Shown here one piece after another: positions 3,723-64,000 of a stretch of 64,000 nucleotides of DNA; the first letter of the stretch is position 1, and every line of letters begins with the position of its first letter. Under the pieces are notes generated by a model. That model searched no databases, was not told the DNA's origin, and worked only from the letters and a program-made list of their open reading frames with translations. This stretch comes from a virus (taxonomy: Duplodnaviria; Caudoviricetes), in the IMG/VR virus record IMGVR_UViG_3300042970_000025, one strand, 5' to 3'. Made by a program: the position numbers and the translations under genes.

Positions 3723-3747
3723 GGTCGAAATTCCTCCTTTCCCGTGT

Positions 3748-4058: not shown

Positions 4059-4077
4059 GTTAAGAAGTCATATTCAG

Positions 4078-5358: not shown

Positions 5359-5374
5359 AGGTTGCTCCTTTCTG

Positions 5375-7600: not shown

Positions 7601-7603
7601 TTC

Positions 7604-9262: not shown

Positions 9263-9273
9263 GACATTCTCCT

Positions 9274-9765: not shown

Positions 9766-9778
9766 TGATATTTCCTCC

Positions 9779-10150
9779 TTAGTATCCTGCGACGTACGTA
9801 TCTGCAGCATAAATCAACTCTCCGCTGTAAACAGAAGCCTTCGTCTGATCCAGCAGATAAAGAATCTGATTTCTGATCTGAAGCGTGAGAGTTTCCACCT
9901 GGCTGAACGTTTCGCTCGTCATTTCATCTCCCGGAATCGACTCAGCTATGCCGGTGACAGCAAGCATCGTCTGAAGGACAGATAGTATCTGGTGCCACTG
10001 TGACAGCGTCACGAAATCATTATCGGTATAGTTCTCCTTCAGCTTCCCATCCGGATAGAGGAGATTCAGATTAGAGCAGATGCGGTTCATGTCGGTGCTC
10101 CTGACCCGGTCAGTTCCGGACCAGTCGGTTTTTGGTTCTATCCATGTCAT
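9779..10150 (-). CDS. Phage tail module protein
   Basis: MTW.EPKTDW...DMNRI..N motif typical of siphophage tail genes. Conserved in prophage 2. Confidence 0.6.
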   Translation of the reverse strand: MTWIEPKTDWSGTDRVRSTDMNRICSNLNLLYPDGKLKENYTDNDFVTLSQWHQILSVLQTMLAVTGIAESIPGDEMTSETFSQVETLTLQIRNQILYLLDQTKASVYSGELIYAADTYVAGY

Positions 10151-10152
10151 AG

Positions 10153-11937
10153 TCAGCAGATCCCTTTCCGGTACGTAACCTCCGCCTTCGTACCGCCGCC
10201 TTCGTGGGTCAGCGTGATGGTTTCAATCGTGCAGGTTTCAACGTTTCCATCCAAGCGATGAAAGGAAAAGATGTCTCTAGGCTGCATCCTGGGATCACCT
10301 TTAAATGTGAAGGAGCCGGTGATGTTTGACCGGCTGAAGAGATACGCATAGTCTGGGTAAAGCAGCGTCGTTCCGCCGTAGATTTTCCCGTGCGCTATCG
10401 GATCAACGGACACTGCGCTTCCTGGGCGTTTTCCAGAATGGATGATGGCAGACTGTTCTTTTGTCAGCGTGACTTCTTTTCCTTTTACAACGCACTGATT
10501 CAGTTTCTTTGTAACCGTCCGATAAATCGGTTGTCCCTTCTTTTTCCCGGTCTTGTAGCGTTTCTTTGTCTTCTCTTTTACCTTCTTGGAAACCGTAGAT
10601 TTCTTTGCGGTCCAGACGATCCGGTTTGCGGTGGCGAGAACAGACTTCGCATTGCTTACGGTAAGGTACCACCAGTAGCCGTCCGGATTATGGGAATAGC
10701 CTTCATTCGTCTTTACGCTTTTGGTTTCAAGCGTGACGAGCTTTTGCGATCGGACCGCCTTTGACAGAAGGCCATAGTCAGAATCCGTCTGTATCTTTGC
10801 GATGTTTCTCTCCACGCTCCGCACGACGTCACCGCAGTCCTCTTCGTAGATGTCCCATTTCTTCACTGGTTTGCTCCAGGTGACAGAAGGAATCCCGGCA
10901 TCTACGAAAGCAGGCCAGAAAGATCCGTTATGAGACAGGTTCATGATATCTGCGATGATCTCACGGGAAGACTGCTCGTCAAAGATCAGTGTATAAGGAG
11001 AAGTATTGCTGTTTGTTCCTGGAGCAGTTTCCCGAGAGATAAGCTTTACTCCGGCATCGGTGATGAACTTGATGAACCGGTTGTAGAGCGTCCTTCTTCC
11101 GTTTCCTCCCGTAGAGTTTAAGACCTGAGAAATGTTATTCTTCTCCTCAAGCTTTGCGCTCATGTCTTCTCCCTTGATCGTGATGACGTTGTTTTCCATC
11201 GAGGCTTTCTCTGACAAGTAGAAGGATCGGACCTTGGAATAATCGCCTTCGTATCCGCTGTAGTACCAGACCGGAACATCATCACCGACATTGCTGATGG
11301 CTTCGGAAATGTCATCTGGCCAGTAAGCCTGAATCTCAATTTCAGACACCTGCCAGGAAGGACTGACGATGGATAGATCGGACCGTAAGGCAAGCGTGCA
11401 GGACACCAAGTTTTCATTGTTAAATTCTAAGGTAATTCCAGGCGTGATCGAAGCAATCTCAATCCGGCTTGCTTCATCAAGGCTTTTAGCAGATAGCGTA
11501 ATGGATGTTCCATTGACCGGGATGACTACAATCCGGCCTGCTGCGTAGTCAATTCCGTTTGCGGTAATTGTGCCAGCCGCATCAGAGGTGACGGCGATGG
11601 TAAGTGCGGCAATATCGGTTTTCGCATTCACGGTAACGGTGAGTGTTTTTCCAAGTTCAGACCGCAGACCGAGCTTTCCATTTTCCAGACTTCCCGTTAA
11701 GGCTGGATCATAGAGACTGCAGCTTCCGTCTAGCAAAAACCCACCTCCGGAAAGGTCCGTAAGTGTTCGCATGTCCCAGTGTTCATTGTCCAAAGCCTCA
11801 GAAGCGTTGGAGTCAGTGATGGCTCCGGTGATGCCGGAGAAAGTGAGATCCACTTTTGTATCCCTTCCGGACAGACCGCAGTGGACTTCAAACGGCGTCC
11901 GGATGGATTTTCTGTTTTCTTCATCAATCGTGGGCAT
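10153..11937 (-). CDS. Tail/baseplate hub-like protein
   Basis: 594 aa following the distal-tail gene; C-terminal KGDPRMQPRD motif. Confidence 0.6.
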   Translation of the reverse strand: MPTIDEENRKSIRTPFEVHCGLSGRDTKVDLTFSGITGAITDSNASEALDNEHWDMRTLTDLSGGGFLLDGSCSLYDPALTGSLENGKLGLRSELGKTLTVTVNAKTDIAALTIAVTSDAAGTITANGIDYAAGRIVVIPVNGTSITLSAKSLDEASRIEIASITPGITLEFNNENLVSCTLALRSDLSIVSPSWQVSEIEIQAYWPDDISEAISNVGDDVPVWYYSGYEGDYSKVRSFYLSEKASMENNVITIKGEDMSAKLEEKNNISQVLNSTGGNGRRTLYNRFIKFITDAGVKLISRETAPGTNSNTSPYTLIFDEQSSREIIADIMNLSHNGSFWPAFVDAGIPSVTWSKPVKKWDIYEEDCGDVVRSVERNIAKIQTDSDYGLLSKAVRSQKLVTLETKSVKTNEGYSHNPDGYWWYLTVSNAKSVLATANRIVWTAKKSTVSKKVKEKTKKRYKTGKKKGQPIYRTVTKKLNQCVVKGKEVTLTKEQSAIIHSGKRPGSAVSVDPIAHGKIYGGTTLLYPDYAYLFSRSNITGSFTFKGDPRMQPRDIFSFHRLDGNVETCTIETITLTHEGGGTKAEVTYRKGIC

Positions 11938-27438: not shown

Positions 27439-27462
27439 CTGAGCTGAAAGGAGATGATTTAT

Positions 27463-27735
27463 ATGTCTACAGTTCCAACTCAGATCCGTATTGATTCCGG
27501 TGTCAAAAAGCAGGCGAACGAACTCTTTAATGAACTCGGTCTGGATATGTCCGGCGCTGTCAATATTTTCTTAAGACAGTGCATTATGAGAGGCGGACTT
27601 CCTTTCAAGGTTGAGGTTCCACAGTACTCTAAAGAATTGCTCAGCGCTGCCGATGAGGCAAAGCGCATTTCCCGTGACCCTGACGTGCCGGGATACACCA
27701 GCATGGAAGATCTTAAGAAAGCTCTTGAAGCCTGA
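27463..27735 (+). CDS. dinJ: RelB/DinJ-family antitoxin
   Basis: IRID..VK.QA..LF..LGLDMS.AVNIFLRQ.....GLPF. Confidence 0.9.
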   Translation: MSTVPTQIRIDSGVKKQANELFNELGLDMSGAVNIFLRQCIMRGGLPFKVEVPQYSKELLSAADEAKRISRDPDVPGYTSMEDLKKALEA

Positions 27736-28017
27736 ATGAACTTAAACGTCAAATTTACTTCGGCTTATAAGAAAAGCTATAAGCTGATGAAGAAGCGTGG
27801 GCTGGACCTTTCTCTTCTTGATGACGTCATCAACACTTTACGTCAGGGTAAAGCACTGGAGGAGAAGTACCATGACCACGAACTGAAGGGAAAACTCAAA
27901 GGCTTCCGTGAATGTCATATTCAGCCGGACTGGCTTCTCGTCTATCTGATAGAGAACGACATCCTCACACTGACATTGGTAGACACTGGAAGCCATGCGG
28001 ATCTCTTTAACATGTAA
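27736..28017 (+). CDS. yafQ: YafQ-family mRNA interferase toxin
   Basis: YKKSYKL..KRG, DHELKG...GFRECHIQPDWLLVY, TGSHADLF. Confidence 0.92.
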   Translation: MNLNVKFTSAYKKSYKLMKKRGLDLSLLDDVINTLRQGKALEEKYHDHELKGKLKGFRECHIQPDWLLVYLIENDILTLTLVDTGSHADLFNM

Positions 28018-36055: not shown

Positions 36056-36143
36056 AGTCGTTACCTCGCTTTCTGTAAAATACCGAGGAGGATTAATTTC
36101 CTCCTCGATATACGGACATTCCTGAGCCATTTTGATGGGGGCG

Positions 36144-36539
36144 TTACCGAAAAAATTTCTTGAATTTTTTCTTGGCGGCTGCGATAGACTCGTGCACGGA
36201 CTTATAATCCCTGCCTTCACGACGAGCGATCTCGCGCTCAGAAAGACCGCCTAAAAAGTGCTGGATCAACCGGCGCTGCTGTGTATCAGTGAGGTGGGAG
36301 AAAGCGGTCCTCATTTTGGCATCGCGCTCATCTGTGTCATTGAAAAGATTTTCTGTAGGATCAGGCAAACCATACTCTTTGCCCGCATACTTAATGCCGT
36401 CCAAAGAAATGCAGTGCCTGCGTTCCTTCCGGTCTGCAGAGTCTTCAGCACGGCGGCTTGCCGTGATGAATTCACCAATATCGGCTGTGGCTTCAACTGC
36501 TGTGACTTCGCCAGTGACTGATTTATAGCTGATCTTCAT
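36144..36539 (-). CDS. Sigma-70 region 4-like regulator, first gene of the early operon
   Basis: LTD.Q.RL....F..GLSEREIARREG....SV.ESI..A.KK HTH. Start at MKISY. Confidence 0.8.
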   Translation of the reverse strand: MKISYKSVTGEVTAVEATADIGEFITASRRAEDSADRKERRHCISLDGIKYAGKEYGLPDPTENLFNDTDERDAKMRTAFSHLTDTQQRRLIQHFLGGLSEREIARREGRDYKSVHESIAAAKKKFKKFFR

Positions 36540-36660
36540 AAAAAACCTCCATTCGCTTGTGCGGAATGGAGGAATCATCACGATCGGCTGCAAAAGGCAT
36601 AAAAAGGCCACTACAGTTTCTGAAGGAGAGTGCTCTCTCCATTCCGAAATTGCAGCAGCC
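36540..36660 (-). promoter_or_regulatory. Structured leader with two terminator-like hairpins and alternative pairing
   Basis: Hairpin 36606-36660 plus U5. Hairpin 36546-36572 plus U6, containing the RBS. 36637-36646 is complementary to 36562-36571. Confidence 0.65.
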
Positions 36661-36877
36661 TGCTCAAAAGACAGCTGGTTTCACTATTCAGTTTTTCCGC
36701 CTCGTTCAGTTGAGCGACAGGTGATCAATCCGTCCAGAACAGAGGTGGTTGCTCCGTGCATAACTCGAACAATATTTTTGAGCTATGAATCGACTTGTGT
36801 TAAACTATAAACATATGTCAACGTTAACATTCCATCGATCTGGAACTATCTGGATTATATGACAGGGCTTTGTTTTC

Positions 36878-36905
36878 TTGGGTCTTGTTTGGGTCAGGTT
36901 GGGTC
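36878..36905. repeat. Three phased TTGGGTC direct repeats (candidate operator)
   Basis: TTGGGTC at 36878, 36889, 36899 (11 and 10 bp spacing) in the divergent intergenic region. Confidence 0.6.
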
Positions 36906-36940: not shown

Positions 36941-38053
36941 GTGGATTTCAAAACATTGTTTGCCGTTTTGAAAAAATATCTGTCTGACGGTGCAGATGTC
37001 CCTGAATTTATGAGAACTCTCATTTCAATGATTACAGAGCTTTCTGAGGAGGATTGGGATGTAAAAAGAGATCCATTAGGAATTGTAAGAGATGCGACTC
37101 TACGGAATTATGCGAAACGAGGATTATCCAAAAAGTTTGCGAAACAGGTCGCCTATAGGTTGAACAGGGAGAATATGATTGCCTGGATCGGGGGAAGCGA
37201 CATCTCTAACCGTGAAATGATGGCACAAGACTTTCACCCTTATGATCCTTCTGTAAATGCAGATAATGTGGCAGAGAAAGTTGCGGATTGGATGACAGAC
37301 TGCATTCGCAAACTGGCAGGTCTTGTTCCTGCAGCTGAAATGAATCAGCAGAAACAAGAGAAGCAGGCGTCTGATTTAAAAAGTAAATATGGTAACTATC
37401 TATTAGCCGAGTCAGATCATCACTGTCCAAACTGTGGCAGGCGGTTGATTATTTCCAGAAATGGGGAAACGGTTCCTGTATATGAAGTCAGCATCATTGA
37501 TCAATCAAAGGCTCCGGAGCCGCAGAACCTGCTTGCCATGTGTCCGAACTGTGCAGCTGTTTATCAAATGGACGATGATGCCAAGCTTCAGAAAGAATTG
37601 AAGGCGAAAAAGAATATTCTTTCCACTCATGAACAGAGTATGGAATTGCTGGAAGATCTTCCGTTGGAGCGGGGCATTACGGGTGTCGTGACAAGGATTA
37701 AGAAATTGAAAGAAAAGGATATTGCTGAATCTAAACTTGATCCGAAGGAGCTGACACAAAAGCTCGATCCTTCGAAGGATATGGCGATTTATCTTTCGGT
37801 GAAATTATATGTTACGACCTATTTCAATAAGATAGATCAGATTATGATCAACCTGGATAAGAAGAAGCAAATTGATTATGACGAAGTCCAGAGACAGATG
37901 AATGGAATGTACCGAAGACTTAACAAGACAAAAAAATCCAAAGCAGAAATCTTCAATGAGATCTCAAGGAAAGTGCAGCGGGTAACGCTGCAAGAGGATG
38001 TTTTTTGTCAGATTGTTGTTTCCTACTTTATTCAGAAATGTGAGGTGTTCTAA
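36941..38053 (+). CDS. ABC-three-component (Lamassu-like) effector: N-terminal helical domain + Zn/HNH-like domain + CTD
   Basis: CPNCG...NLLAMCPNC motif, C-terminal IVVSYFIQKCEVF typical of ABC-3C CTDs. Likely GTG start at 36941. Confidence 0.75.
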   Translation: MDFKTLFAVLKKYLSDGADVPEFMRTLISMITELSEEDWDVKRDPLGIVRDATLRNYAKRGLSKKFAKQVAYRLNRENMIAWIGGSDISNREMMAQDFHPYDPSVNADNVAEKVADWMTDCIRKLAGLVPAAEMNQQKQEKQASDLKSKYGNYLLAESDHHCPNCGRRLIISRNGETVPVYEVSIIDQSKAPEPQNLLAMCPNCAAVYQMDDDAKLQKELKAKKNILSTHEQSMELLEDLPLERGITGVVTRIKKLKEKDIAESKLDPKELTQKLDPSKDMAIYLSVKLYVTTYFNKIDQIMINLDKKKQIDYDEVQRQMNGMYRRLNKTKKSKAEIFNEISRKVQRVTLQEDVFCQIVVSYFIQKCEVF

Positions 38054-38283
38054 TGCAGCTGCCGAACAAACTTTATTCATATGAAAAAAGCACCCTCTAT
38101 TATGTTCCGATGGTGCTGCAGCTACTGAAAGATGGCCCAATGAAGGTAATGGACTTATATGACTCTATGCGTCATTTGCTTAAAGATCCGACTGATTTTC
38201 TGGCAGTAATGGACTGCCTTTATGCATTGCGTGCGGTTGATATTAATTCAGATGAAGAGGTATATTCATGCTTAAAGAAATGA
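38053..38283 (+). CDS. ABC-three-component middle component
   Basis: M.LPNKL.SY..S.L...LD.LYAL small protein coupled between effector and ATPase. Confidence 0.75.
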   Translation: MQLPNKLYSYEKSTLYYVPMVLQLLKDGPMKVMDLYDSMRHLLKDPTDFLAVMDCLYALRAVDINSDEEVYSCLKK

Positions 38284-39911
38284 GTTCTCCAGTATTTATA
38301 GAAAAAGGTGAAGTTCGACCACCGATCGTATTCAAGCGAGGACTGAATGTAGTGCTTGGTAAAGAGGATGCGGCAAACTCCATAGGAAAATCATCTGCCT
38401 TGCTTGCAATAGATTTTGTGTTTGGAGGAAATACCTATTTAACAAGTGATGGTATAAGGCACATGGGCCATCATACGATTTACTTTACGTTTGAATTTGA
38501 TGGAAGAGATTTCTACTTTGCCCGAAATACAGCAGATGCGGAGCAGATTCAGATCTGTGATATGAATTACAATCTGACAGGCAATGTCTGGACAAAAGAA
38601 CACTTTACCAACTGGCTGAAGCAGAAATATCATATGGATTTTCCGGGATTAAAGTTCCGCCCGGTGCTAAGCAGCTTCTTTCGTATTGCCGGAAAAGAAA
38701 ATACAAATGAACGCAGACCACTGGTCGGTCTTCCCGGTGATAGCATGGAAAAATCAATAAATAGATTGATCACGCTTTTCAATCGCTATGAGGATATCGA
38801 GGATTACTCGAAGCGGAAAGATGAGCAGAAGGAAAAACTGAAAGCTTACAATAAGGCACGGGACTATCAGTTCATATCAAATCTTGTCGGCGGCAAAGAA
38901 CAATATGAAAAAAATGAAGCAGAAATTAAATCCCTTCAGGTTCAGTTAGATACATTAACTTCCGCACAGGCGGAAGCTAGTTCTGAGGAAGATATCCAAA
39001 AGAATATGCAAAAAGCGGAGCTAAAAGACAGAAAGCTGAGATTGGAAGAGCAGATCGATTCCCTACGTAGGAGACTATCTCTTCTGGATTTAAGTATTGA
39101 GTATGGTGTTTATCCGACAGAGAATGATCTTTCTGCGCTTCAGGAATTTTTTCCGGAAGTAAATTTGAGAAAACTGTATGAAATAGAAAAATACCATAGG
39201 AAGCTTGCAAAAATACTCGACGGACAGTTCACTGCCGAACGGGACAATGTTCAGGCTGAATTAGAGGGATTGGTAGAACAGCGGCAGTCTTTGGTTAATC
39301 AAATTCATGAGCTTGGTTTTGTCGGAGGACTTTCAAAGGAATTCTTAGACAAGCATTCTGAGATTAAAGGAAAAATGGATGCACTGAGAATACAAAATCA
39401 GGCATATGTGATGAAGAAAGAACTGGAGGATCAGAAGAAGGCAGCAGATGATATGCTGAAGCGAGCAATCGCATCCATTCTTGCAGATATTGAACAGTCT
39501 GTTAATACGAAAATGAAAGAATACAACGATATGTTATTCGCGGAAGAACATAAACCGCCGATTCTGCATTTTAACGATTACAACAGTTATCGATTTGAAA
39601 CACCAGGTGACAGAGGAACCGGTTCGAATTATAAGGGGATGGTTATCTTTGATCTGTCCATTCTAGCGTTAACAAATCTTCCTGCGATTGCACATGACTC
39701 ACTGATCTTAAAAAATATTAGCGATGGGTCAATTGATGGTATAATGAAGATCTACGAACAAAGCAGGAAACAGATATTTATTGCTTTCGATAGACAGCGT
39801 ACCTATAGTAAAAGTACTCAGAAAATATTAAATGATAATACCGTGCTGAAGCTTTCTGATCAGCACTGTGAATTATATGGGGATTCTTGGAATGTAGAGG
39901 TAAAACGGTGA
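38268..39911 (+). CDS. SMC/ABC-like ATPase (DUF2326 family)
   Basis: F..GLNVVLG....NSIGKSS Walker A, long coiled coil, GTGS.YKG signature, IAHDS Walker B. Confidence 0.85.
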   Translation: MLKEMSSPVFIEKGEVRPPIVFKRGLNVVLGKEDAANSIGKSSALLAIDFVFGGNTYLTSDGIRHMGHHTIYFTFEFDGRDFYFARNTADAEQIQICDMNYNLTGNVWTKEHFTNWLKQKYHMDFPGLKFRPVLSSFFRIAGKENTNERRPLVGLPGDSMEKSINRLITLFNRYEDIEDYSKRKDEQKEKLKAYNKARDYQFISNLVGGKEQYEKNEAEIKSLQVQLDTLTSAQAEASSEEDIQKNMQKAELKDRKLRLEEQIDSLRRRLSLLDLSIEYGVYPTENDLSALQEFFPEVNLRKLYEIEKYHRKLAKILDGQFTAERDNVQAELEGLVEQRQSLVNQIHELGFVGGLSKEFLDKHSEIKGKMDALRIQNQAYVMKKELEDQKKAADDMLKRAIASILADIEQSVNTKMKEYNDMLFAEEHKPPILHFNDYNSYRFETPGDRGTGSNYKGMVIFDLSILALTNLPAIAHDSLILKNISDGSIDGIMKIYEQSRKQIFIAFDRQRTYSKSTQKILNDNTVLKLSDQHCELYGDSWNVEVKR

Positions 39912-39914
39912 GAA

Positions 39915-40136
39915 ATGAAAACGAGTTATAAAAAGTTATGGAAGCTGCTGATCGATCGTGACATGACAAAAACGCAGCTTCGGAAAGCATCAGGGATAAG
40001 CTCGTCATCCCTTGCAAAGCTGGGAAAAGATGAGAACGTAACAACAGCCGTTCTTGTTAAAATTTGCGAGGCTCTTGAGTGCGATGTATCGGATATCATG
40101 GAGATAGTGCCGGAGGGGGATGCTTTGGACCAATAA
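39915..40136 (+). CDS. XRE/Cro-CI HTH regulator
   Basis: SYKKLWKLLIDRDM.K..L....GIS....AKLGKDENV....L.KIC..L.C...DIME. Confidence 0.9.
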   Translation: MKTSYKKLWKLLIDRDMTKTQLRKASGISSSSLAKLGKDENVTTAVLVKICEALECDVSDIMEIVPEGDALDQ

Positions 40137-53100: not shown

Positions 53101-53147
53101 GAGAGCAGGCCGCTCTGGGAGAAAATCCCTTGAGCTGGCCTGCTCTT
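53101..53147. terminator. Hairpin terminator between cargo gene and recombinase
   Basis: gagcaggccgctc...gagctggcctgctc. Confidence 0.65.
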
Positions 53148-54714
53148 ACTGGTTGATGTCGACCTCAAGCCCGGACTTGAATTCAATTACGGCTTTATCC
53201 TGATAGATGGTGATCTGCCGGATGAGCTTTCGCACCATGCGCTCGTCGAACTCGGCGATATCAGTCTGCTGATCTTTCAGGAAATCCTGCAGCTCGGTGA
53301 TTCTTTTCTGCAGGTCTTCCTGGCTCCTGGCTGAGGAATCGGCCTTTTCCTTTTCTTCCCGCAGTCGGAAGATCTCATCGGCGATGGCGTCGTAGTCTTC
53401 TTTACTGTTTGCTTTCCTGATGAGCTCCGTCTGCAGTTCATCGAGCCTTAACTGGATGCCCTCCGCGCTGGATGGATCGGATTCGCGGATGGCTTTCACC
53501 ATGTTTTCCTGGAGCTGATGCAGGAATTCGTCTTTTCCGGTAAGGAGCAGATTGAAGGCTCTTACGGTGATGTCCTTCAGCCATTCTTCCTTGATGGTGC
53601 GGTTTTTGCAGACTTTGACTACGGAAGATGGATCAAGCCGGCTGATGCAGCGCCAGACGATGGCGGTTTTGCCGTGGATGTACCAGTGGACTCTTCGGTA
53701 GAGATCGCCGCATTCTCCGCAGACGATGATCTGGGAAAAGCAGTTGTTTCCGGAGTAGACCCGCTTCTTGCCGGAAGGGGAGCGATGGACGTTTCGCCGT
53801 CGGACGAGCTCCTCCTGAACCTGCATGAAAAGCTCTTTAGGAATAATCGCTTCATGGTCGTCTTCGACGTAGTACTGAGGGAGAACGCCGTTGTTTTTGA
53901 CTCGCTTCTTGGTCAGGAAGTCCGTGGTTACCGTCTTTTGGAGGAGGGCATCTCCCATGTACTTTTCATTCCTTAGGATCTTGTTGATCGTGGAATCGTA
54001 CCATTTGGTATTGCCTGCTCCGGTGAGAACGCCATCCTGCTCCAGATGCTGCGCGATGGTTTTCATGGAGTAGCCTTCGAGGTACTCCCGGTAGATCCTG
54101 CGCACCACCTCGGCCTGCTTGGGATCAATGACGAGGTTTCCGTTTTCGTCTTTCGTATATCCTAGGAAGCGGTTGTGGTTGACCTGGACCTTTCCCTGCT
54201 GGTAGCGGTACTGGATGCCGAGCTTGACGTTTTGGGAGAGGGACTGGGATTCCTGCTGCGCAAGGCTTGCCATAATTGTGATCAGAACTTCTCCCTTGGC
54301 GTCCATCGTGTTGATGTTCTCCTTTTCAAACCAGACGGCGATGTTCTTTTCCTTCAGCTGCCGGATGTATTTCAGGCAGTCCAAGGTGTTACGGGCAAAT
54401 CGGCTGATGGATTTTGTTATGACCATGTCGATGTTTCCCGCCATGCATTCATCGATCATTTTATTGAACTGTTCCCGTTTCTTGGTGTTGGTTCCGCTGA
54501 TGCCGTCGTCGGCGAAGATGCCGGCAAGCTGCCAGTTTGGATGGCTGTTGATGTACTCCGTGTAGTGGGAGACCTGCGTTTCGTAGCTGGTTTCCTGTTC
54601 CTCGGTATCCGTGCTGACGCGGCAGTAGGCTGCAACACGCAGCTTTGGCTTTTCTGCCTGTTTGACGGTATTTCCTATCTTTCTTCTTGCAGGAATGATT
54701 GTAATATTTCCCAT
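53146..54714 (-). CDS. Large serine recombinase (prophage 2)
   Basis: Near-identical to 177..1745. Confidence 0.95.
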
Positions 54715-54716
54715 CG

Positions 54717-55133
54717 TTATTCCTCACTTTCAATCAGACTGTACAAGTACTCTGCACGCTTCTTAGGATTTCCGGTCGTCTGCTCCGGAGCAGAGATGGT
54801 GAATTTCGTCGCTGCAGGCTTCTTTGCTTTGGGCTTCCTGCTTGGGTGCAGTCTTCCCGTTTTCTTGGCCCGCTGCATCCGTTCCTCGTGGATCCGGTCG
54901 AGTGTTTCTTTATCAGTAATGGCAGGGTAGAAGTCATCGCCCTGGTAGTGTCTGTTTTCAAGCAGCCGTTTGATCGAGGAGTGCGTAGCCTTGATTCCTG
55001 CGCTGGATGCTGCTTTTGACAAAGACATCCCGGCAAGGTAGTTCTTAAAAAGCTGTTGCAGTTTTTCTGCTTCCTCTTTGCAGACGACAGCTTTGCCGCC
55101 TTCGATCCGGTAGCCGTATAGTATGGTTCTCAT
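54717..55133 (-). CDS. Small recombinase-domain protein (prophage 2)
   Basis: Homolog of 1748..2164. Confidence 0.85.
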
Positions 55134-55137
55134 AACC

Positions 55138-56691
55138 TCACATCCTTTCTTTAAGCTCTAGCCCGCACTTCAGACAGAAGGTGATCTCATGACGGGAATG
55201 CACCGTGATATGATCGACGAACTCATCAAACCGTTCGTCGTCAAACTCCTGAAGCATTTCACTTTTCTCGGTGAAGTGAAGAAGGGCTCTTGCCTTTAGC
55301 AGTACCTCTGTGACATCGGAGGCGGAGTTCTCCAGGAGGCCAATCTCCTTCTGGATGCCTTCTGAAGCCGCAAAAAGATCTGCAGTTTCTCTACTGTAGA
55401 GCGTCTGGTCGATGATTCCCTGCGTCATCAGGCGGGTTAAGGTCTGTCGCTTTCTGGCATTTTCCGAAAGCCGTTCCTTCAGAGCATCGATCTGGTCCAG
55501 CGTTTCTTTTTTTGCGTTATCCTTCAGGCTGTTTGCATAGGGCCTTAAGATCAGCCGGTGGGAGTAGATCAGTTTGTTCATCATGGTAAGAAACGAACGC
55601 TTCAGGTCCTCATCTTTGATGGACTGCATCGGGCATTTCGTTTTTCCCTGCAGATGTGTCTTGCACACCCAGATCACAGGACTTTCAGAAGAGGAGTAGG
55701 CGATACGCCGTTTAAACGTGCTCCCGCAGCATCCGCAGAGGATCCTTCCGGTAAAGGTGTAGCGGCTTAAGTATTTCTGGCTGTTCTTTTCGATATTCTT
55801 TTCCTGCGAACGCTGCTGGATTAGGCGCTGTACGTTCTCCCAGTCCTCACGGCTGATGATGGACTCGTGGTGGTCTTTCACGAGGACCGCATCTTTTTCA
55901 CCGCGGTTCATGTGACGCTTGAAGGAAGAGTCGGTCCAGGTCTTCTGGAAGATACAGTCTCCGGTGTACTTCTCATTGGTTAGCACGCAGTGGACAGTGG
56001 AGCGCCGCCAGGCACGTCCGTTTCTTGCCGGGATGCCTTTGCCGTTTAGAAGATCGGCGATTGTATCGCTTCCGGTTCCCTTGAGTGCTTCGTTAAAGAT
56101 GAATTGAACGACTTCAGCCTGTTTCCTGTTGACCACCATCTGTTCTCCGTTCCAGTCGTAGCCATAGGGTGGGTACACCACTTTGAAGGTTCCGTTTTCA
56201 AACCGCTTCCTGGCGCTCCATTTCATGTTCTGTGAAATGGAGTAGGATTCATCTGCAGCCATGCTGGAAAGAATGGAAAGAAAGAGCTCGCTTTCCATGG
56301 ATCCGGTGTTGATGTTCTCCTTTTCAAACCAGATCGGGATGTTCAGGTCTAAAAGCCTTCGCACGAGGCTCAGGCAGTCCGCAGTGTTTCTGGAAAAGCG
56401 GCTGATGGACTTCGTGATCACCAGATCGATTTTTCCGGCTTCGCAGTCCGAGATGAGATGTTCTAGCTCAGGCCGGGCGGCTTTTCCTGTTCCGCTGATG
56501 CCTTCGTCGTAGTAGATGCCGGCAAGCTGCCAGTCGTCTTTGGAACTGATGTAGCTTTCATAGTGAGATTTTTGCGTATTCAGGCTCTCAAGCTGTTCAT
56601 CGCTATCCGTACTGACACGGCAATAGGCTGCAACCCGCAGGATTTTCTTTCTTTTGCTTGTCGTTTTTTCTATCTTCGTTACTTTTTTCAA
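55138..56691 (-). CDS. Large serine recombinase (prophage 2)
   Basis: Homolog of 2169..3722; TTG start at 56691. Confidence 0.93.
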   Translation of the reverse strand: MKKVTKIEKTTSKRKKILRVAAYCRVSTDSDEQLESLNTQKSHYESYISSKDDWQLAGIYYDEGISGTGKAARPELEHLISDCEAGKIDLVITKSISRFSRNTADCLSLVRRLLDLNIPIWFEKENINTGSMESELFLSILSSMAADESYSISQNMKWSARKRFENGTFKVVYPPYGYDWNGEQMVVNRKQAEVVQFIFNEALKGTGSDTIADLLNGKGIPARNGRAWRRSTVHCVLTNEKYTGDCIFQKTWTDSSFKRHMNRGEKDAVLVKDHHESIISREDWENVQRLIQQRSQEKNIEKNSQKYLSRYTFTGRILCGCCGSTFKRRIAYSSSESPVIWVCKTHLQGKTKCPMQSIKDEDLKRSFLTMMNKLIYSHRLILRPYANSLKDNAKKETLDQIDALKERLSENARKRQTLTRLMTQGIIDQTLYSRETADLFAASEGIQKEIGLLENSASDVTEVLLKARALLHFTEKSEMLQEFDDERFDEFVDHITVHSRHEITFCLKCGLELKERM

Positions 56692-56716
56692 GGTCAAATG
56701 TCCTCCTTTCCCGTGT

Positions 56717-56938
56717 CTATACATCACTCTGATTGCCGCACATAGCAAGAGAATGAGGGAAGATTTCCCAAAACAGGGGAGAGAAAGTTTTGCGATTGAT
56801 GTCCATAAATTTGTCATATTCGCCGGGACTTAACAGGCTGCAATGAAGCATCTGATCTGCGATTGCTTTGGCTCTCTCATAGTTGAGATCATTCTGGATC
56901 CGCTCATTTGTGTAGAAGTTGTCATTGTCTTTGCTCAT
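56717..56938 (-). CDS. SHOCT-like small protein (prophage 2)
   Basis: Homolog of 3748..3969; contains the bipartite motif copy at 56718-56749. Confidence 0.7.
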   Translation of the reverse strand: MSKDNDNFYTNERIQNDLNYERAKAIADQMLHCSLLSPGEYDKFMDINRKTFSPLFWEIFPHSLAMCGNQSDV

Positions 56939-57045
56939 GGATCGTTTTCCTCCTACCTTCTACTGGAGAAAAAGAAGCATTTTGAGCAAAAAAATCACGG
57001 CTAAAAGGAGTTTTCCTTCTAGCCGTATCAAGAAGTCATATTCAG

Positions 57046-57912
57046 TTAGAGCAGAGCCTTGATTTTGGCTATGGTCTTTGGGCCCGCAATTCCGTCAATT
57101 GCAAGTCCATGTTTCTGCTGGAAGATCCTCACTGCCTTTTCGGTAGCAGGGCCAAATAGACCATCGACATCAAATCCTGCCTTCATGATTTTGTTTAGGC
57201 ACTCCTGGAGCCGGATGACCTGAGAACCGCTGTCGCCTCGTTTCAGGTCGGTGGCAGGAAGGCTCATTTTACTAGCAGAAGTACTGCCTTTGTGATAGCC
57301 GTTGAATCCTCCTTTTTTGATGATGGAAGGATAGTCGATGTAGGCATAGTTCATATCCACGTTTCCACTAATCCCTGGGACCTTCCCAGAGGAGGAGTAT
57401 TGCCAGATGCCGTAATCCCCGCGGTAGCTGCATTTACCTGCGTACTGCGCTACCCAGTGGGCGATGGAATGGAGCTTCGCATCGTCCAGGCGATCCTGAA
57501 AACCGGAGTAGGTTGAAGCGTAGATTCCGGCATAGTAGCCTGCTTTTTCTAGCTCCTTGCAGAAAGCCAGGGCGGCCTTTGTGGTGCCGGAACGTTTTGC
57601 TGCCGGCTGCGCTTCACAGTCAAAGTAAACCGGATACTCCAGCTTTTTTCCTTTTAGAAGCCTGATGAACCTCTTCGCGTCAGCTCTTCCAGCTTCCGCT
57701 GTCACGCACTTCGGGCCGGCAAAGTAGTACGCACCGACTGCAATGCCGTTTGCCTTCGCTCCTTTGTAGTTGGCTTCCCATTTGCTGTCCGTATAGAAGC
57801 CGTCATCGGAGCCTCCAGCTTTGATGATCGCGAATCTGATACCAGAAGTCTTTACCTTTGCCCAGTTGATGTTTCCCTGCCAGTGGCTTACGTCTATGCC
57901 TTTACCTGTCAT
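57046..57912 (-). CDS. GH25 endolysin with PG-binding domain (prophage 2)
   Basis: Homolog of 4078..4944. Confidence 0.93.
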   Translation of the reverse strand: MTGKGIDVSHWQGNINWAKVKTSGIRFAIIKAGGSDDGFYTDSKWEANYKGAKANGIAVGAYYFAGPKCVTAEAGRADAKRFIRLLKGKKLEYPVYFDCEAQPAAKRSGTTKAALAFCKELEKAGYYAGIYASTYSGFQDRLDDAKLHSIAHWVAQYAGKCSYRGDYGIWQYSSSGKVPGISGNVDMNYAYIDYPSIIKKGGFNGYHKGSTSASKMSLPATDLKRGDSGSQVIRLQECLNKIMKAGFDVDGLFGPATEKAVRIFQQKHGLAIDGIAGPKTIAKIKALL

Positions 57913-58326
57913 TTAATTTTCCTCCTTTTCTGCCCGGTCATGAAGCTGCTCGAGCACAGCTTTCAGTTTCACTGGAATCGGAAGGCCCAGATGCCCGGCG
58001 TTTTCCAGTAAAGATACTCCTTCATTTGAGATGTAGAAGAAGATCACTGCAGTTCGTACAACGGAACCGGATTTTACGACGTAGATGTCGATCAGATTCG
58101 CAAGACCGACAAGTAAAAAAATGAGGACCTTCCTGCAGATCCCCTTAAACCCGACAGCAGATGATAACCGCTTGGCCGAAATGGCGCACATGACGCCTGT
58201 GATGTAATCGATGATGACGCATGCGGCGAGAAGAAAAATCAGCCCGTCGCAGCCACCGAGATAATACCCGATCCACCCGCCGAGTACGGCAAGAACTGCC
58301 TGATTAACTGCCCAGAATTCTTTCAT
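57913..58326 (-). CDS. Holin (prophage 2)
   Basis: Homolog of 4945..5358. Confidence 0.9.
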   Translation of the reverse strand: MKEFWAVNQAVLAVLGGWIGYYLGGCDGLIFLLAACVIIDYITGVMCAISAKRLSSAVGFKGICRKVLIFLLVGLANLIDIYVVKSGSVVRTAVIFFYISNEGVSLLENAGHLGLPIPVKLKAVLEQLHDRAEKEEN

Positions 58327-58342
58327 AGGTTGCTCCTTTCTG

Positions 58343-60568
58343 TTAAGCCGTCCGTTTCCAGACATTTACAACGAGATACGGCGGCATATTGTTGTGCGCC
58401 GCTCCGCCTCCCGCATATCCCGTGGTAAAGGAATGCGTATGGGAACCTCCGCTTACGGTACTGCTTCCGTGAGAATAGTTCTCCGAGTCTTTGGACCTTG
58501 GAAGTTTGTATCCCGATCCGGAAATATTTCCGGAATATGTATCTGCGCCGGTGTCACCATCTGTGGTCAGATGCACATATTTACCTGACCCGTAGCTGTG
58601 ACTGTGAGAACCTCCGCTGTCTGTAGTTCCAGTGTGCTGATGTGACGGCATCTCAGAAGCAGTAAGTGTATGTGCAGCTTCCCCTCCGGTATCTCCTGCT
58701 GTATATCCGTTTCCGGATGCCAGCAGGAACTGTCCGCTGACTGGTTCCCAGGTGCCTCCAAAAAGTGAAGCAGGAGAAACAGAATTAACCGACAGGTAAA
58801 TTGAGCCTACCGGATAGATCAGATCAACAAGCTCTTTTCCTCTGTAGGATAGCTTGCCGTTGAACCTGGCATCATACTGGCACTCAAATCCGTCGCCCTC
58901 TGAGATTTTCCCAATGGCCATGCCTTTTCCGCCTGCGTGAAAGTCCATAATGACTTCCGCCGTCTGCACGATAACCGAAGAGGAGAGTGTCGTGAAATCA
59001 TCGGTAACCGACAGCGTAAGTTTGTACCTGTTTGTCGAGGAGAAGACTTCGTAGCCACTGTTTCCTCTGATATCGAGTATTCCGGAGGCATGGTAGGAAG
59101 TCAGCGTCAGATTGATCGTTCCATTGGACGAGTCCGTCAGGTTCGTCCAGGTAAGAGTAGCTGCTTTTGTATTCTTATCATTCAGGGAGCTTATCGTGAT
59201 ATCGTAGGTTATCCGAAGAACCGTTCCTGCATCGTCTATGGCAAGTGATCCATCGGACTGCACAGACATTCTGATTGCGGTAAAAGTTCGGATCACAGGA
59301 TTGTTGTAAGGAAGAACGGTGACTGTCTTTTCTGCCAGCTTTGATGTTCTTCCTCTTGCATCCGTAACTGAAGCAGTAAAACTGCTGTCGCTCTCTTTGA
59401 TCACTTGATCGGAAGTAATCACTGAACTTGAGGAGGTTACTTCTGCTTCATCGGAAAAGCTTCCGGTATAGGTCTTAATCGGAGAGCTGTAACTTGCTGT
59501 TCCTGTGACTGTTATCTCTGGGATAGACTTTTCTGAGACAAATGCGCCGTAGTGCTGAAGAAGTGTCTCTGTGCCGTCTTTGCTGCAAGTCACGATATCA
59601 GAAACCGCTGTGATCTCTGCCTTTGGAATGACCGATGCAGGAACGATCAATGTGATTGCCGCGCGGTCTGTGGCAAGTACAGTATCCTCAAAACAGGTAT
59701 CCAGGCGAATTGTGCAGGACGCAGACTCCGCTTCGGTGATATGGTCAAGCAGGCTGAGAGGCGGCGTGAATGTTGTGCTTCCTACTACAGATGGATCGGA
59801 GATTCCGTCTGTTCCTGTCACATCGTTTACCGTATACGACAGGTGGTGCGTATATCCGGGATGGTTTCCCTGCGTATAGATTTCTGCTGAGCTTGACCCA
59901 TCGATCATGCAGGAGGAGTCCGGAAGATACAGCGTGCTTGTCCCCGGCCGGTAAAGTGCCAGGCTGCAGGTGTTGCTCCCAAGGGATGTATTTCCGTTAT
60001 ATGTGGTGCAGGTGATCGTGCACTTCCCGGAAGATCCTGCGGTGCACCAGGAGAATGGAATCATCCAGTTCACCGAAGCTTGCGCCGTTTGGGCTGCGAT
60101 CGTTGTACTTTTTCCATTCCAGGAAGCCGTCAGTGTATGGGTAAAGGATGAGGACTTCCGGTTCGTGTTGATGGTGATGGCAGACCCTAGTGTTCCTGAA
60201 GATGGGCATGTCGGAGCGGATTTTCTAGCGATCGTGGTGAGTGTTTTTGTTAAAGAATCTTTTACGGTTCCTGAGCTCGTGCTGGTTGCGTATGATGCAG
60301 AGACGGTCAGTTTCTTTGACCCGTCAGAGTTATGCTCGATATCCAGTGTTTTGCTGTAGATGGTATTGCTTCCGCTGGTCGTGTTGTTTGGATTTAAGCT
60401 GACAGATTTGGTATATTTGTCTCCGTCAATCACGACGGTGAGTTTCGGCGGGTTATGATCAAAAGTTCCGGAGGTCCATTTTGCCGTGACTTTGACCGTG
60501 ACGTTTGAGCTGTTCGAAGAGACCGAAGTACTGTTTTCGGTAATTCCAATGGTAATCGATGCTGGCAT
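58343..60568 (-). CDS. Minor tail/receptor-binding protein (prophage 2)
   Basis: 741-aa homolog of 5375..7600, largely identical. Confidence 0.75.
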   Translation of the reverse strand: MPASITIGITENSTSVSSNSSNVTVKVTAKWTSGTFDHNPPKLTVVIDGDKYTKSVSLNPNNTTSGSNTIYSKTLDIEHNSDGSKKLTVSASYATSTSSGTVKDSLTKTLTTIARKSAPTCPSSGTLGSAITINTNRKSSSFTHTLTASWNGKSTTIAAQTAQASVNWMIPFSWCTAGSSGKCTITCTTYNGNTSLGSNTCSLALYRPGTSTLYLPDSSCMIDGSSSAEIYTQGNHPGYTHHLSYTVNDVTGTDGISDPSVVGSTTFTPPLSLLDHITEAESASCTIRLDTCFEDTVLATDRAAITLIVPASVIPKAEITAVSDIVTCSKDGTETLLQHYGAFVSEKSIPEITVTGTASYSSPIKTYTGSFSDEAEVTSSSSVITSDQVIKESDSSFTASVTDARGRTSKLAEKTVTVLPYNNPVIRTFTAIRMSVQSDGSLAIDDAGTVLRITYDITISSLNDKNTKAATLTWTNLTDSSNGTINLTLTSYHASGILDIRGNSGYEVFSSTNRYKLTLSVTDDFTTLSSSVIVQTAEVIMDFHAGGKGMAIGKISEGDGFECQYDARFNGKLSYRGKELVDLIYPVGSIYLSVNSVSPASLFGGTWEPVSGQFLLASGNGYTAGDTGGEAAHTLTASEMPSHQHTGTTDSGGSHSHSYGSGKYVHLTTDGDTGADTYSGNISGSGYKLPRSKDSENYSHGSSTVSGGSHTHSFTTGYAGGGAAHNNMPPYLVVNVWKRTA

Positions 60569-60571
60569 AAG

Positions 60572-62230
60572 TTATCCTTCCTGATCTTCCAGAAGTTTAA
60601 AAGACAGATTCCCATTTGGCTGAGGGACAAAGGCAAAGTCGTCTTTTCCGTCACCTGAGCTTCCAAAGCGGATAGATTCCAGGATCCTTGCCTTTGTGAT
60701 CTTCATGGTGTCCGTATTAAAAAAGGCGGAGACAGCTCCGCCTGCGTAAAGGTTCATTCCTTGTTTGCTGATCGTCACTTTGTAGGGCGATCCTTCCTCT
60801 CCAATCTCAATCACCAGCTCTCCATCCACAGTAGCTGACCGGATGTACTTCAGCGGTTCATGAATAAGCGATAAGGCTTCTTTTGAAAAGTTGGAAATGA
60901 GGAGAGCTCCCGCTGCGATTTTTTCCGAGGTGATGGTCCCTTTTGCAATCTTGGAACCGTCGATACTGCCGGAGCCGTCATCTAAAGCCCATTCTTTTAA
61001 TATTTGCTTGGCTTCTTCTGTAGATGACTTGATGGATGGAAGCTCGGCCTGACCGTTAATGGCCTGCTTGGCCTGGTCAGATGCTTCCTGCACTTTACTG
61101 TCCAGATCATCCAGCCTTCCCGGAATGCGCTCAGTTCTTGCGACCTTCTCAGTGTGCACCGTTCCGTCAGAATCGGTGTAGGTGATTTCATCGTAGATGA
61201 CTTCTCCTGTTTCATCAGTGACGGTTTTGGTCTCTCCAACGAGCCCTGTGATGGTCTCGGTGATTCCGCCATCTCCGTAGACGTCATCCTGAAGGCCTGT
61301 GACAGAACTATCCAGGCTGTCTGCCGTTTGCTGGGCCTCATCAGCTGCCTGTTTTGCCGCGTCTGCTTTTGCGTTAATCTCGGAGAGCGACTCTCTCCAG
61401 GGCGTCGACAGGGCGCCTTCTTCCACTTTAAGGTTCGCAATGTCTAAGCTAGCGCCAGAAGGCATATTGGAAAGGTCAAAGGATAGATTCTGGGAAGATG
61501 CGGCTGCTCCAGGAGATAATGCCGTGGAGGAGTAGTGAACCCAGACGCCAGAATTATCGGTATCGATATCCGCAGCAGTATTGTCAATGTCAGAGAAGGC
61601 GATCTGAATATTGCTTCCATCGCTGTCCTGCATACGGACAGGAATCAGAAAAAGATCTGACATCCGGATGTCTGCTGATAGGGTGTAGCTGTTTCCTTCC
61701 GGCTGACTGGACAGCACATTTCTAAACTCTGCTGCGGAAAAGGAAAGGCTGTTTTTTCCTGAAGTATTGCAGGTCACAGTCAGGTAATTGACAGCATCTA
61801 AATCCGTGTAGATTCCTTCTTCATTTTCTGAAAGTGTAAGATTTCCGGAAGCGGACCAGCCGGTTATTCCTTGGTTTGTAGAAACGAGGAGGTTCACATT
61901 TCCAATCTCCGTGTCGGCGTTTCCCTGGGTTAAGGTGATGTCCATGGAGTTGATTTCCGTATCTGCAGAAAGGTCATCTGCCATATCTTCCAGTTCTTCC
62001 AGACGTTCTTCGATGTCATCGAAAGAGCCTGGATCATCGTCGGACTTTTCTATTTCTTGCCAGATGTATTTTGCCGGGTCCGTTGACTCGTCACTAGACT
62101 GGTCGGTGTAGCGCCCAATAAAAAGGGCATTGCTTGATTCTTCTAGGCTTAAGTTCGTCCCAGCTTCATCATCAGCCCAGGCGGCATGAAGGAAGAAATC
62201 TTGCTCATTAAACATTGTCTTTACTACCAT
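60572..62230 (-). CDS. Tail-associated protein (prophage 2)
   Basis: 552-aa diverged homolog of 7604..9262. Confidence 0.6.
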   Translation of the reverse strand: MVVKTMFNEQDFFLHAAWADDEAGTNLSLEESSNALFIGRYTDQSSDESTDPAKYIWQEIEKSDDDPGSFDDIEERLEELEDMADDLSADTEINSMDITLTQGNADTEIGNVNLLVSTNQGITGWSASGNLTLSENEEGIYTDLDAVNYLTVTCNTSGKNSLSFSAAEFRNVLSSQPEGNSYTLSADIRMSDLFLIPVRMQDSDGSNIQIAFSDIDNTAADIDTDNSGVWVHYSSTALSPGAAASSQNLSFDLSNMPSGASLDIANLKVEEGALSTPWRESLSEINAKADAAKQAADEAQQTADSLDSSVTGLQDDVYGDGGITETITGLVGETKTVTDETGEVIYDEITYTDSDGTVHTEKVARTERIPGRLDDLDSKVQEASDQAKQAINGQAELPSIKSSTEEAKQILKEWALDDGSGSIDGSKIAKGTITSEKIAAGALLISNFSKEALSLIHEPLKYIRSATVDGELVIEIGEEGSPYKVTISKQGMNLYAGGAVSAFFNTDTMKITKARILESIRFGSSGDGKDDFAFVPQPNGNLSFKLLEDQEG

Positions 62231-62239
62231 AGCGGCCTC

Positions 62240-62731
62240 CTACAAAACAGCGATCCAGTAAAACGAGGTGTCCGTGTCGCTGGAGCGGTAAAGGCAGAGG
62301 TCAAAACCCTTGGTCGTGACGCTCTTAACGCTGAAGGACACCATGTTGGGAGCCGCGGTGATCGGGGTGATGGTGACCGACGGGACAGAAGTAAAAGCCT
62401 TCGGAAAGTTCACGTGCTTGGTCACCACCTTGTTTTTCTTTGCGTCAACACGGGCGGACCCTCTCTGAAGGTTCCTTACCTTTACATTCTGACTCGAGTC
62501 GATCGTAAAAGGAGAAAGTGCCGTGCTTACTGCATCACTGACATTTTCGTTTACTTCGGTAATGACGCTTTGAAGCTCGCTGTTTAGGTTCGCCGCATTT
62601 AGCTGCGTTCCTTCTGTAGTGATGGTGCCTTCCGCACGGGTAAGGTCGAATGTGCCGAGGACTTCTCCGGTCTCAGAATTGGTCAGGGTGAAGCGCCCTG
62701 GATGCTCGACGACGCGGTCAATAAATGCCAT
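62240..62731 (-). CDS. Tail protein with H-type lectin-like domain (prophage 2)
   Basis: Homolog of 9274..9765. Confidence 0.65.
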   Translation of the reverse strand: MAFIDRVVEHPGRFTLTNSETGEVLGTFDLTRAEGTITTEGTQLNAANLNSELQSVITEVNENVSDAVSTALSPFTIDSSQNVKVRNLQRGSARVDAKKNKVVTKHVNFPKAFTSVPSVTITPITAAPNMVSFSVKSVTTKGFDLCLYRSSDTDTSFYWIAVL

Positions 62732-62743
62732 GATATAGCCTCC

Positions 62744-63115
62744 TTAATATCCACTCGAATAGCTTTCTGCTGCGTAAATCAGATCGCCGCTGTAGGAAGA
62801 TGCTTTCGTCTGATTGAGAAGTACCTCAATCCGGTCTTTAAACATCTGCGTTAGTTCTTCGACCTGGTTAAAGATCTCTGCGGTCATGTCGCTTCCTGGA
62901 AGAGGGGCATTGAGCCCGGTAACAGCGCTAAGCTGATTTAACGTAGTTAGAATCTGATTCCATTCAGTTACAGTCACAAAGTCATTTAAGCTGAAGTTCT
63001 CTTTCAGGTTTCCAGTTGGAAGAAGGACGTTTAGATTTCCGCAGATGCGGTTCATGTCCTCTGTAGTGACGCGATCTGAAGCAGTCCAGTCGGTTTTGGG
63101 TTCTTTCCATGTCAT
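62744..63115 (-). CDS. Tail module protein (prophage 2)
   Basis: Homolog of 9779..10150. Confidence 0.6.
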   Translation of the reverse strand: MTWKEPKTDWTASDRVTTEDMNRICGNLNVLLPTGNLKENFSLNDFVTVTEWNQILTTLNQLSAVTGLNAPLPGSDMTAEIFNQVEELTQMFKDRIEVLLNQTKASSYSGDLIYAAESYSSGY

Positions 63116-63126
63116 ATTCCACCTCG

Positions 63127-64000
63127 TTAACAGATCCCTTTCCGGTAGGTAACTTCCGCTTTCGTTCCTCCGCCTTCGTGAGTCAGGGTGATTGTTTCAA
63201 TCGTGCAGAGCTCCTCGCTTCCATCAAGCCGGTGAAAAGAAAACACGTCTCTAGGCTGCATGCGTGGGTCTCCCTTAAAGGTAAAAGAACCCGTGATGTT
63301 TGACCGGTTAAATAGATAGGCGTAGTTTGGGTAGAGCAGGGTGGTTCCACCGTAGATTTTCCCGTGAGAAATGGGATCAACCGTGATTGTTGTTCCTGGC
63401 CTTTTTCCAGAAGGAAGAATGGAGGAGTTCTCCATGGTTACCGTGACGGATTTTCCTTTGACGACGCACTGGTTCAGCTTTTTCGTCACCGTCTTATAGA
63501 TCGGCGTTCCTTTCTTCTTTCCCGTTTTATATTTCTTCCCGGATTTAACTTTCACCTTCTTAGAAACCGTCGTTTTCTTTGCGGTCCAGACGATCTTGCT
63601 TGCAGTAGCTAAGACGGACTTTGCGTTAGAAACCGTTAAATACCACCAATAACCTTCAGGCGAATGGGAATACCCTTTTCCAGCTTCTACGGATTTTGTC
63701 TCCAGAGTCTCTAGTTTATTAGACCTCACGGCTTTGCTGTGAAGGCCGTAGTCTGCGTCTGTTATGATTTTGGAGATATTCCGCTCGACGCTCCGGACGA
63801 CATCTCCACAGTCTTTTTCGTAGATGTCCCATTTTTTGATGGGCTTGCTCCAGGTGACTCTTGGAATCCCTGCATCTACAAAGGCTGGCCAGAAAGTCCC
63901 GTTATGCGATAAGTTCATGATGTCAGCTACGATCTCACGGGAGGACTGCTCGTCAAAGATCAAGGTGTAAGGAGATGAATTGCTGTTCGTATCCGGAGCA
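63127..64000 (-). CDS. Tail/baseplate hub-like protein, 3' part (prophage 2; 5' end outside window)
   Basis: Homolog of the C-terminal half of 10153..11937. Confidence 0.65.
   Translation of the reverse strand, partial: APDTNSNSSPYTLIFDEQSSREIVADIMNLSHNGTFWPAFVDAGIPRVTWSKPIKKWDIYEKDCGDVVRSVERNISKIITDADYGLHSKAVRSNKLETLETKSVEAGKGYSHSPEGYWWYLTVSNAKSVLATASKIVWTAKKTTVSKKVKVKSGKKYKTGKKKGTPIYKTVTKKLNQCVVKGKSVTVTMENSSILPSGKRPGTTITVDPISHGKIYGGTTLLYPNYAYLFNRSNITGSFTFKGDPRMQPRDVFSFHRLDGSEELCTIETITLTHEGGGTKAEVTYRKGIC

Follow-up and report, generated by a model that had tools for sequence, protein, structure and literature searches.

A conserved leader RNA in Ca. Heliusvirales-like prophages is very probably a two-state switch on the first early regulator and carries a candidate kissing loop

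Introduction

What controls the early operon of a prophage that seems to lack a recognisable CI/Cro pair? This question is raised by a 64,000 nt stretch of viral DNA (IMG/VR record IMGVR_UViG_3300042970_000025, Caudoviricetes; hereafter the window), for which an earlier note, made from the sequence alone, had proposed an RNA switch in the minus-strand leader of the early operon. The phage group to which the locus is related is widespread, as Heliusvirales phages were present in 96.9% of one cohort (PMC9226167). A repressor or lysogeny control for Ca. Heliusvirales is not mentioned in the Heliusvirales papers searched or in the GuFi preprint.

Results

Genomic context of the leader

The leader precedes a leftward operon with the order sigma-4 gene, Gp157, AAA_24, helicase and primase. 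Presumably head, tail, lysis and serine recombinase genes then follow, an assignment made by ORF order. The features flanking the leader are:

36144-36539, minus strand: sigma-region-4 HTH gene, 131 aa, heading the early operon (PF08281, E 3.5e-6)
36878-36905, minus strand: three GACCCAA repeats one helical turn apart, a candidate operator (from sequence)
36944-38053, plus strand: divergent ABC-3C CTD11 gene with an uncharacterised helical N-terminal domain (domain matches)
39915-40136, plus strand: Cro/C1-type HTH gene, 73 aa, before type III R-M cargo (PF13443, E 1.5e-20; phrog_3)

The fold matches of the 131-aa protein were sigma-4 domains and a sigma-2 domain was not found in it; we infer that it acts as an activator. 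The top matches of the terminase share 82-87% identity with it; most are PV0364xx records, and the records examined are classed as Ca. Heliusvirales. Judged by the relationship of the terminase and the head module, the element that hosts the leader is probably a Ca. Heliusvirales-like prophage. The Gp157 and AAA_24 genes stand here in the early-module place of the Heliusvirales markers (nine, including DUF2800, DUF2815 and Pol I), and complete genomes of the Ca. Heliusvirales group carry the same leader.

Upstream and divergent of the leader lie an ABC-3C operon, the 73-aa HTH gene and type III R-M and GmrSD cargo. The genes at this place differ among the homologues and none is conserved across leaders. 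The N-terminal domain of the divergent protein was considered as a possible CI-like HTH: its structural model reached a pLDDT of 74, Foldseek gave no match, the best Z of the fold comparison was 5.3 and no fold was assigned. The claim of the earlier note that a CI/Cro pair is missing stands in part: a peptidase-bearing CI flanking the early operon was not found in the gene annotation of the window, but a Cro/C1-type HTH gene lies 3.4 kb upstream of the operon, and its product might be a repressor.

Several further observations were made in the window. The ABC-3C (Lamassu-like) operon spans 36944-39911 and the helical N-terminal domain of its effector is conserved; 3' of it lie type III R-M genes here and BREX genes in the near-identical locus L803. 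Two related tail/lysis/recombinase prophage modules stand in tandem at 168-11026 and ~53140-64000, being 85% identical over 10.9 kb, and the leader of the second falls outside the window. The gap separating the sigma-4 gene from the ORF that follows it contains a short hairpin with a GAGGAGG run (36085-36108, minus strand), with a promoter-like spacer 5' of the hairpin. Judged from the translations, a RelB/YafQ-looking toxin-antitoxin pair (27454-28017, plus strand) is placed in opposite orientation within the late operon.

The leader belongs to an Rfam family

An Rfam search, which the earlier note had proposed, identified the leader as the DUF2800 RNA:

36581-36748, minus strand: RF02960 DUF2800 RNA, whole model, ending before the SD hairpin (88.7 bits, gathering score 60.2)

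The match covers model positions 1-158. RF02960 was the sole scoring family, and a c4-type match was not found in the leader up to E 5. The consensus of RF02960 consists of a 5' hairpin (P1), hairpin 1 and the outer stem, which together correspond to the OFF fold described below; the SD hairpin, the X:Y helix, P2 and the pseudoknot are outside the model. Rfam classes the family as cis-regulatory. We take it to go back to Weinberg et al. 2017. No function for the DUF2800 RNA is given in searchable papers, from which the family name and accession are absent. The RNA is unnamed in the main text of PMC5737381, the supplement of which lay outside the search and may already note the pseudoknot or parts of the structure. 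Literature searches returned no comparable RNA switch of Firmicutes prophages, and the extended two-state model, the palindromic loop and the interchangeable leader set reported here were not found in the literature searched.

For comparative analysis, leaders were gathered in two ways, with DNA patterns and through the protein encoded downstream, and 69 leaders less than ~92% alike were aligned. All 69 stand 5' of an ORF, and sigma-4/HTH matches are among these ORFs. Covariation E-values were obtained with our own R-scape-like script with a tree-based null, not with R-scape itself. A subset of 22 leaders found by protein only was used as a check. In a genome-order scan with our own leader model, matches were found in 3 of 151 genomes. 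The contigs of two metatranscriptome runs held fragments of a relative's neighbouring genes only, the leader lying outside the coverage.

The OFF fold buries the Shine-Dalgarno sequence

The two hairpins and the strands that they share with the alternative fold are:

36606-36660, minus strand: hairpin 1 of the OFF fold, trapping strand X, with U5 at 36605-36601 (from folding)
36540-36572, minus strand: hairpin 2, burying GGAGG (36550-36546), then U6 (95.4% paired among homologues)
36637-36646, minus strand: strand X, anti-anti-SD (X:Y helix 99.0% paired)
36562-36571, minus strand: strand Y, anti-SD, the 5' arm of hairpin 2, pairing with X or with the SD strand

Both hairpins had been described in the earlier note and were found again at the same positions. 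Hairpin 1, given there as ~25 bp, has 24 bp (-32.1 kcal/mol, z -5.3). The stem of hairpin 2 (36572-36546; -16.9 kcal/mol, z -4.6) carries GGAGG in its 3' arm, and the U6 is followed by the AUG at 36539. The folding z of the leader as a whole is -5.3. Across the 69 leaders hairpin 1 was 90-94% paired and hairpin 2 ~95%, which bears out the view that hairpin 2 hides the ribosome binding site of the sigma-like gene; the spacing between SD and AUG is 7-8 nt in 54 of them.

At least five U follow hairpin 1 in only 10/69 homologues, so that its role as a conserved terminator, also part of the earlier reading, was rejected: the 24-bp length and the U5 are features of this lineage. At least five U follow the SD of hairpin 2 in 41/69, the same stretch being the spacer between SD and AUG. 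From these counts (10/69 versus 41/69), SD burial is the common output, and any termination at hairpin 1 would be limited to particular lineages. Hairpin 1 may act as a terminator in this lineage, and hairpin 2 with its U-run is possibly a weak one. Taken as a whole, the switch probably exerts its control mainly through access to the SD.

The ON fold frees the Shine-Dalgarno sequence

As the earlier note had seen, X (36646-36637) is the exact 10-nt complement of Y (36571-36562). Taken by itself this match was rejected as evidence, since 25% of the shuffles of the 241-nt stretch contain one, and homologues were therefore needed. Nine X:Y pairs were 99.0% paired across the 69 leaders. Two of the columns are compensatory (AU in 37 and GC in 30 leaders; CG in 50 and UA in 18), with 5 and 6 parsimony changes, and rank 3rd and 5th among all column pairs (E ≤ 0.025, tree-based null). 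In the 69 leaders the X:Y pairs rank above both the matching Y:SD pairs and the identity between X and SD, a result in favour of direct pairing. X:Y pairing also holds in the 22 protein-only leaders, where X-SD identity is about equally kept. An AUG within X, the sole start surveyed as a possible uORF start, is present in 18/69 leaders only.

Upstream of X, a 5' domain missed by the earlier note was found, which comprises:

36697-36747, minus strand: P1, the 5' hairpin, whose bulge bears the pseudoknot 5' strand (upper stem 93% paired; strongest covarying pair 36730:36720)
36710-36715, minus strand: pseudoknot 5' strand GCUCAA in the P1 bulge (covaries with 36667-36662)
36662-36667, minus strand: pseudoknot 3' strand UUGAGC in the P2 loop (92.6% paired over 5 pairs, compensatory variants)
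36653-36677, minus strand: P2 hairpin of the ON fold (pair 36676:36654 99% paired, 5 swaps on the tree)
36721-36729, minus strand: P1 apical loop of 2 nt, the palindrome UGAUCA (36727-36722) and 1 nt, a candidate kissing loop

The pseudoknot between P1 bulge and P2 loop covaries with E 0.025, and a conserved A-rich linker joins P1 and P2. Throughout the 5' domain, structure is conserved more than sequence. The 3' arm of P2 doubles as the 5' arm of the lower stem of hairpin 1, and the 5' domain is thereby coupled to X; the pseudoknotted 5' domain is likely the sensor of the switch. Taken together, covariation in the 69 leaders shows that two mutually exclusive folds exist, one hiding and one freeing the SD, as the earlier note had expected for an antiterminator-type pairing. 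Very probably the leader is a conserved RNA switch with two states that acts on the first early regulator.

The P1 loop is palindromic in diverse leaders

In 51/69 leaders, compared with ~5 expected, 9 nt separate the centre of the loop palindrome from the pseudoknot strand that follows, and the loop register is 2+6+1 in 55/59. A parsimony count of the palindrome changes was set aside, since several rows were mis-anchored. Among 58 leaders, the hexamer is a fully Watson-Crick palindrome in 40 and closed by G-U in 5, while only the inner 4 nt are palindromic in 13; any loop palindrome is missing in 2-3 leaders. The cores found are GATC, GGCC, TGCA, GCGC and CTAG, with counts of the GATC class inflated, as some alignment rows were collected with patterns that include the P1 loop. 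Loop and pseudoknot strands are alike in the GATC and GGCC classes, and part of the palindromy could thus stem from pairing in cis; in several members with divergent cores the loop is unlike these strands. Self-complementarity that is kept through sequence change suggests, by analogy with the HIV-1 DIS, a loop-loop homodimer.

A different reading would take the palindrome and four related 8-mers as sites in DNA, either operators or methylation sites, with the alternative pairing following from the repetition of the sites. GATC, GGCC, GCGC and similar sequences are typical methyltransferase sites. X forms a direct repeat with the SD strand, and the 22-leader subset keeps the identity of the two about as well as the X:Y pairing; over all 69 leaders, however, the match of X to Y as a complement is closer than X-Z identity (G 56 and 53 versus 26 and 37). 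G-U pairs are kept in the helices, a pseudoknot is seen to covary and the position of the palindrome within an RNA loop is off-centre, and we regard the reading as DNA sites as highly improbable.

Leaders whose 3' platforms are 96-98% identical bear 5' parts that are 53-59% identical, with a different loop and pseudoknot, which indicates that 5' domains are swapped as modules. In addition, leaders L161, L799 and L801 precede sigma-4 proteins 67-68% identical to that of the window and have quite different 5' domains, again a sign of module exchange.

Unrelated leaders, designated types B-F, also stand before genes of the same family; judged by eye and by folding, the last element of each appears to be an SD-burying hairpin. 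An Rfam search down to E 0.05 gave no match for types B, C, D and F, and type E had none at gathering score. Type C has a loop palindrome of at least 6 nt in 22/22 anchored loops, comprising seven hexamers; its members include leaders found with an HMM that excluded the loop, for which a palindrome is expected by chance in ~24% each. One leader has GUGCAC as an eighth hexamer. An obvious palindromic loop was not found in types B, D and F. The type C leaders (L175, L236, L318, L637, L756, L790-L792 and L795) lie ~200 nt upstream of the sigma-4 gene and have a 5' hairpin with the palindromic loop, a long central stem and an SD-burying hairpin. Further leaders were assigned to type B (L163, L189, L308), F (L232, L266), D (L179, L347), E (L238, L268) and G (L271, L272), most of which have a terminator-like hairpin and an SD-burying hairpin.

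This variety also bears on a metabolite or ion riboswitch, in which the pseudoknotted 5' domain would be the aptamer and induction would be coupled to host physiology. The combination of an aptamer-like pseudoknot with an expression platform and the cis-regulatory listing in Rfam agree with it, and a Heliusvirales-related prophage was found to be induced without mitomycin C (bioRxiv 10.64898/2026.01.26.701711). It is nevertheless very unlikely, considering that few bases of the 5' domain are invariant, that loop and pseudoknot vary freely, that the domain is swapped and that several unrelated folds serve the same gene.

Energetics of the two folds

For the full leader, OFF is at most 1 kcal/mol above the minimum in 61/69 and is more stable than ON by a median of 15.7 kcal/mol, the energy of the pseudoknot being excluded. 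With Y made and the SD strand not yet made, ON minus hairpin-1 energy has a median of -0.5 kcal/mol, again excluding the pseudoknot, and when Y emerges X:Y is part of the minimum free energy structure in 42/69. As the two paths are level at this point, the pseudoknot could tip the outcome during transcription. The window's own copy is unusual among the 69: it is biased by ~12 kcal/mol toward OFF at the decision point, of which the pseudoknot duplex repays only -6 to -8.

Since the finished RNA is OFF by such a median, something may have to hold ON. A protein could do so by binding to the 5' domain of the same switch and stabilising ON in the manner of LicT or HutP; it might be encoded by the phage, for instance the sigma-4 protein or a zinc-ribbon protein from upstream, or be an RNA-binding protein of the host, and the conserved A-rich linker between P1 and P2 is compatible with such a trigger. 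Upstream genes are not conserved across the leaders, though, and a bound protein would conserve the sequence of the loop rather than its self-complementarity across at least five different sequences, so that a protein trigger appears unlikely.

Promoters and nearby DNA

A sense sigma-A promoter was not found by consensus in the window, and 2/69 leaders have one overall. In ~25/69 loci, a strong sigma-A promoter lies ~100 nt upstream of P1 and is directed away from the leader, and many loci have short TTCGCA-like repeats, candidate operators, between this promoter and P1. Some 30 nt upstream of P1, ~13-15/69 loci (e.g. L209, L424, L013 and L387) have a compact pseudoknot-like motif abutting the 5' end of the leader, often directly 3' of a 64-aa ORF. 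The motif might serve to mark a processed end or to protect it.

Divergent promoters with operator-like repeats nearby are also what would be expected if a protein repressor at upstream promoters decided between lysis and lysogeny, and if the leader were a kinetic switch without a trigger, in which random partition or polymerase speed sets how often induction occurs spontaneously. The HTH gene at 39915-40136 and the level energies of the two paths at the decision point fit this as well. Such a switch would leave the conserved palindromy unexplained, and the divergent gene is a variable defence gene without a clear HTH fold, making this distinctly unlikely.

The earlier note had also suggested a search for an antisense RNA. 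A separate antisense RNA from the opposite strand could drive attenuation as in pIP501 and pT181, whose attenuators have the same platform layout. In a consensus sigma-A scan, however, a strong antisense promoter inside or below the leader was present in 1/69 only, which speaks against this proposal, and an antisense partner would not require a palindromic loop. We therefore consider it extremely improbable.

Discussion

A model for the switch

In the model that we favour, P1, P2 and the pseudoknot would occupy in the ON state the strand needed by hairpin 1, X would pair with Y and the SD would be free. In the OFF state hairpin 1 would trap X, Y would bury the SD and the U-run that follows may also end transcription; by computation the finished RNA relaxes to OFF. 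Leader copies that have accumulated in a lysogen or in a multiply infected cell would kiss the nascent leader through the palindromic loop, block the formation of the pseudoknot and so force OFF, leading to dormancy and to a P4-like superinfection immunity. Palindrome and pseudoknot sequence would then define specificity groups.

Self-recognition in trans between leader RNAs is, on the sequence data, a possible trigger, to which we assign a chance slightly short of even. Palindromes of the inner 4 nt only, types B, D and F without a palindrome and the OFF-biased copy of the window argue against it, and so does the lack of a consensus sense sigma-A promoter, which makes the source of leader RNA in a lysogen doubtful. 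IsrK, discussed below, activates, and the sign of the trans effect here is uncertain for that reason; given self-recognition as the trigger, repression appears the likelier sign. The switch would set lysis versus lysogeny and replace a protein repressor.

In its widest form, the proposal is that the most prevalent gut phage lineage counts its own copies through a set of leader RNAs that can replace one another, that two or more of these have palindromic kissing loops which have diversified, and that a CI-type protein is dispensable. We put this forward tentatively and consider it rather doubtful. If true, self-recognition by RNA homodimerisation would serve as a bacterial gene switch that sets lysis or lysogeny as well as immunity groups, and the self-complementary loops would be a specificity code readable from sequence, from which immunity groups could be predicted. 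An orphan Rfam motif would gain a concrete two-state mechanism with named base pairs, and at least four further leader classes missing from Rfam are exposed.

Comparison with known systems

The CI RNA of P4 (seqA/seqC) and IsrK of Gifsy-1 are RNAs derived from leaders that act in trans on their own transcript (PMC4825925). As in these systems, an RNA from the leader of an early phage operon would decide the expression of a downstream regulator, with action in trans being conjectural here. The leader has no sequence or Rfam relation to either RNA, and its hosts are Firmicutes. In P4 the complementary sites are separate and lie on either side of CI, whereas one self-complementary loop would suffice here.

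An antisense-controlled attenuator with the same layout as that of pIP501 is found in pT181. For pIP501, control of this kind has been described in PMC4981023. In both plasmids, as here, a strand lying upstream takes up the 5' arm of a hairpin adjacent to the start codon before the hairpin can form, and the outcome is set during RNA synthesis, and the mutually exclusive anti-terminator/anti-SD pairing of these attenuators is also present in our leader, as judged by covariation. Unlike pIP501 and pT181, the leader showed no conserved antisense promoter in the consensus sigma-A scan and has a pseudoknotted 5' domain, and its target is a phage regulator instead of a plasmid Rep.

The apical loop of the HIV-1 DIS has a 2+6+1 register, and its palindrome varies between subtypes. 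The leader would resemble it in a self-complementary apical loop kept through sequence change, for which kissing is predicted, and one type C leader has the same GUGCAC hexamer. In the DIS, too, the palindrome in the apical loop is six nucleotides long (PMC7357161). The two are unrelated in origin, and the bases flanking the palindrome are mostly pyrimidines in the leader compared with the conserved purines of the DIS. The DIS serves packaging, whereas the leader loop would serve gene control.
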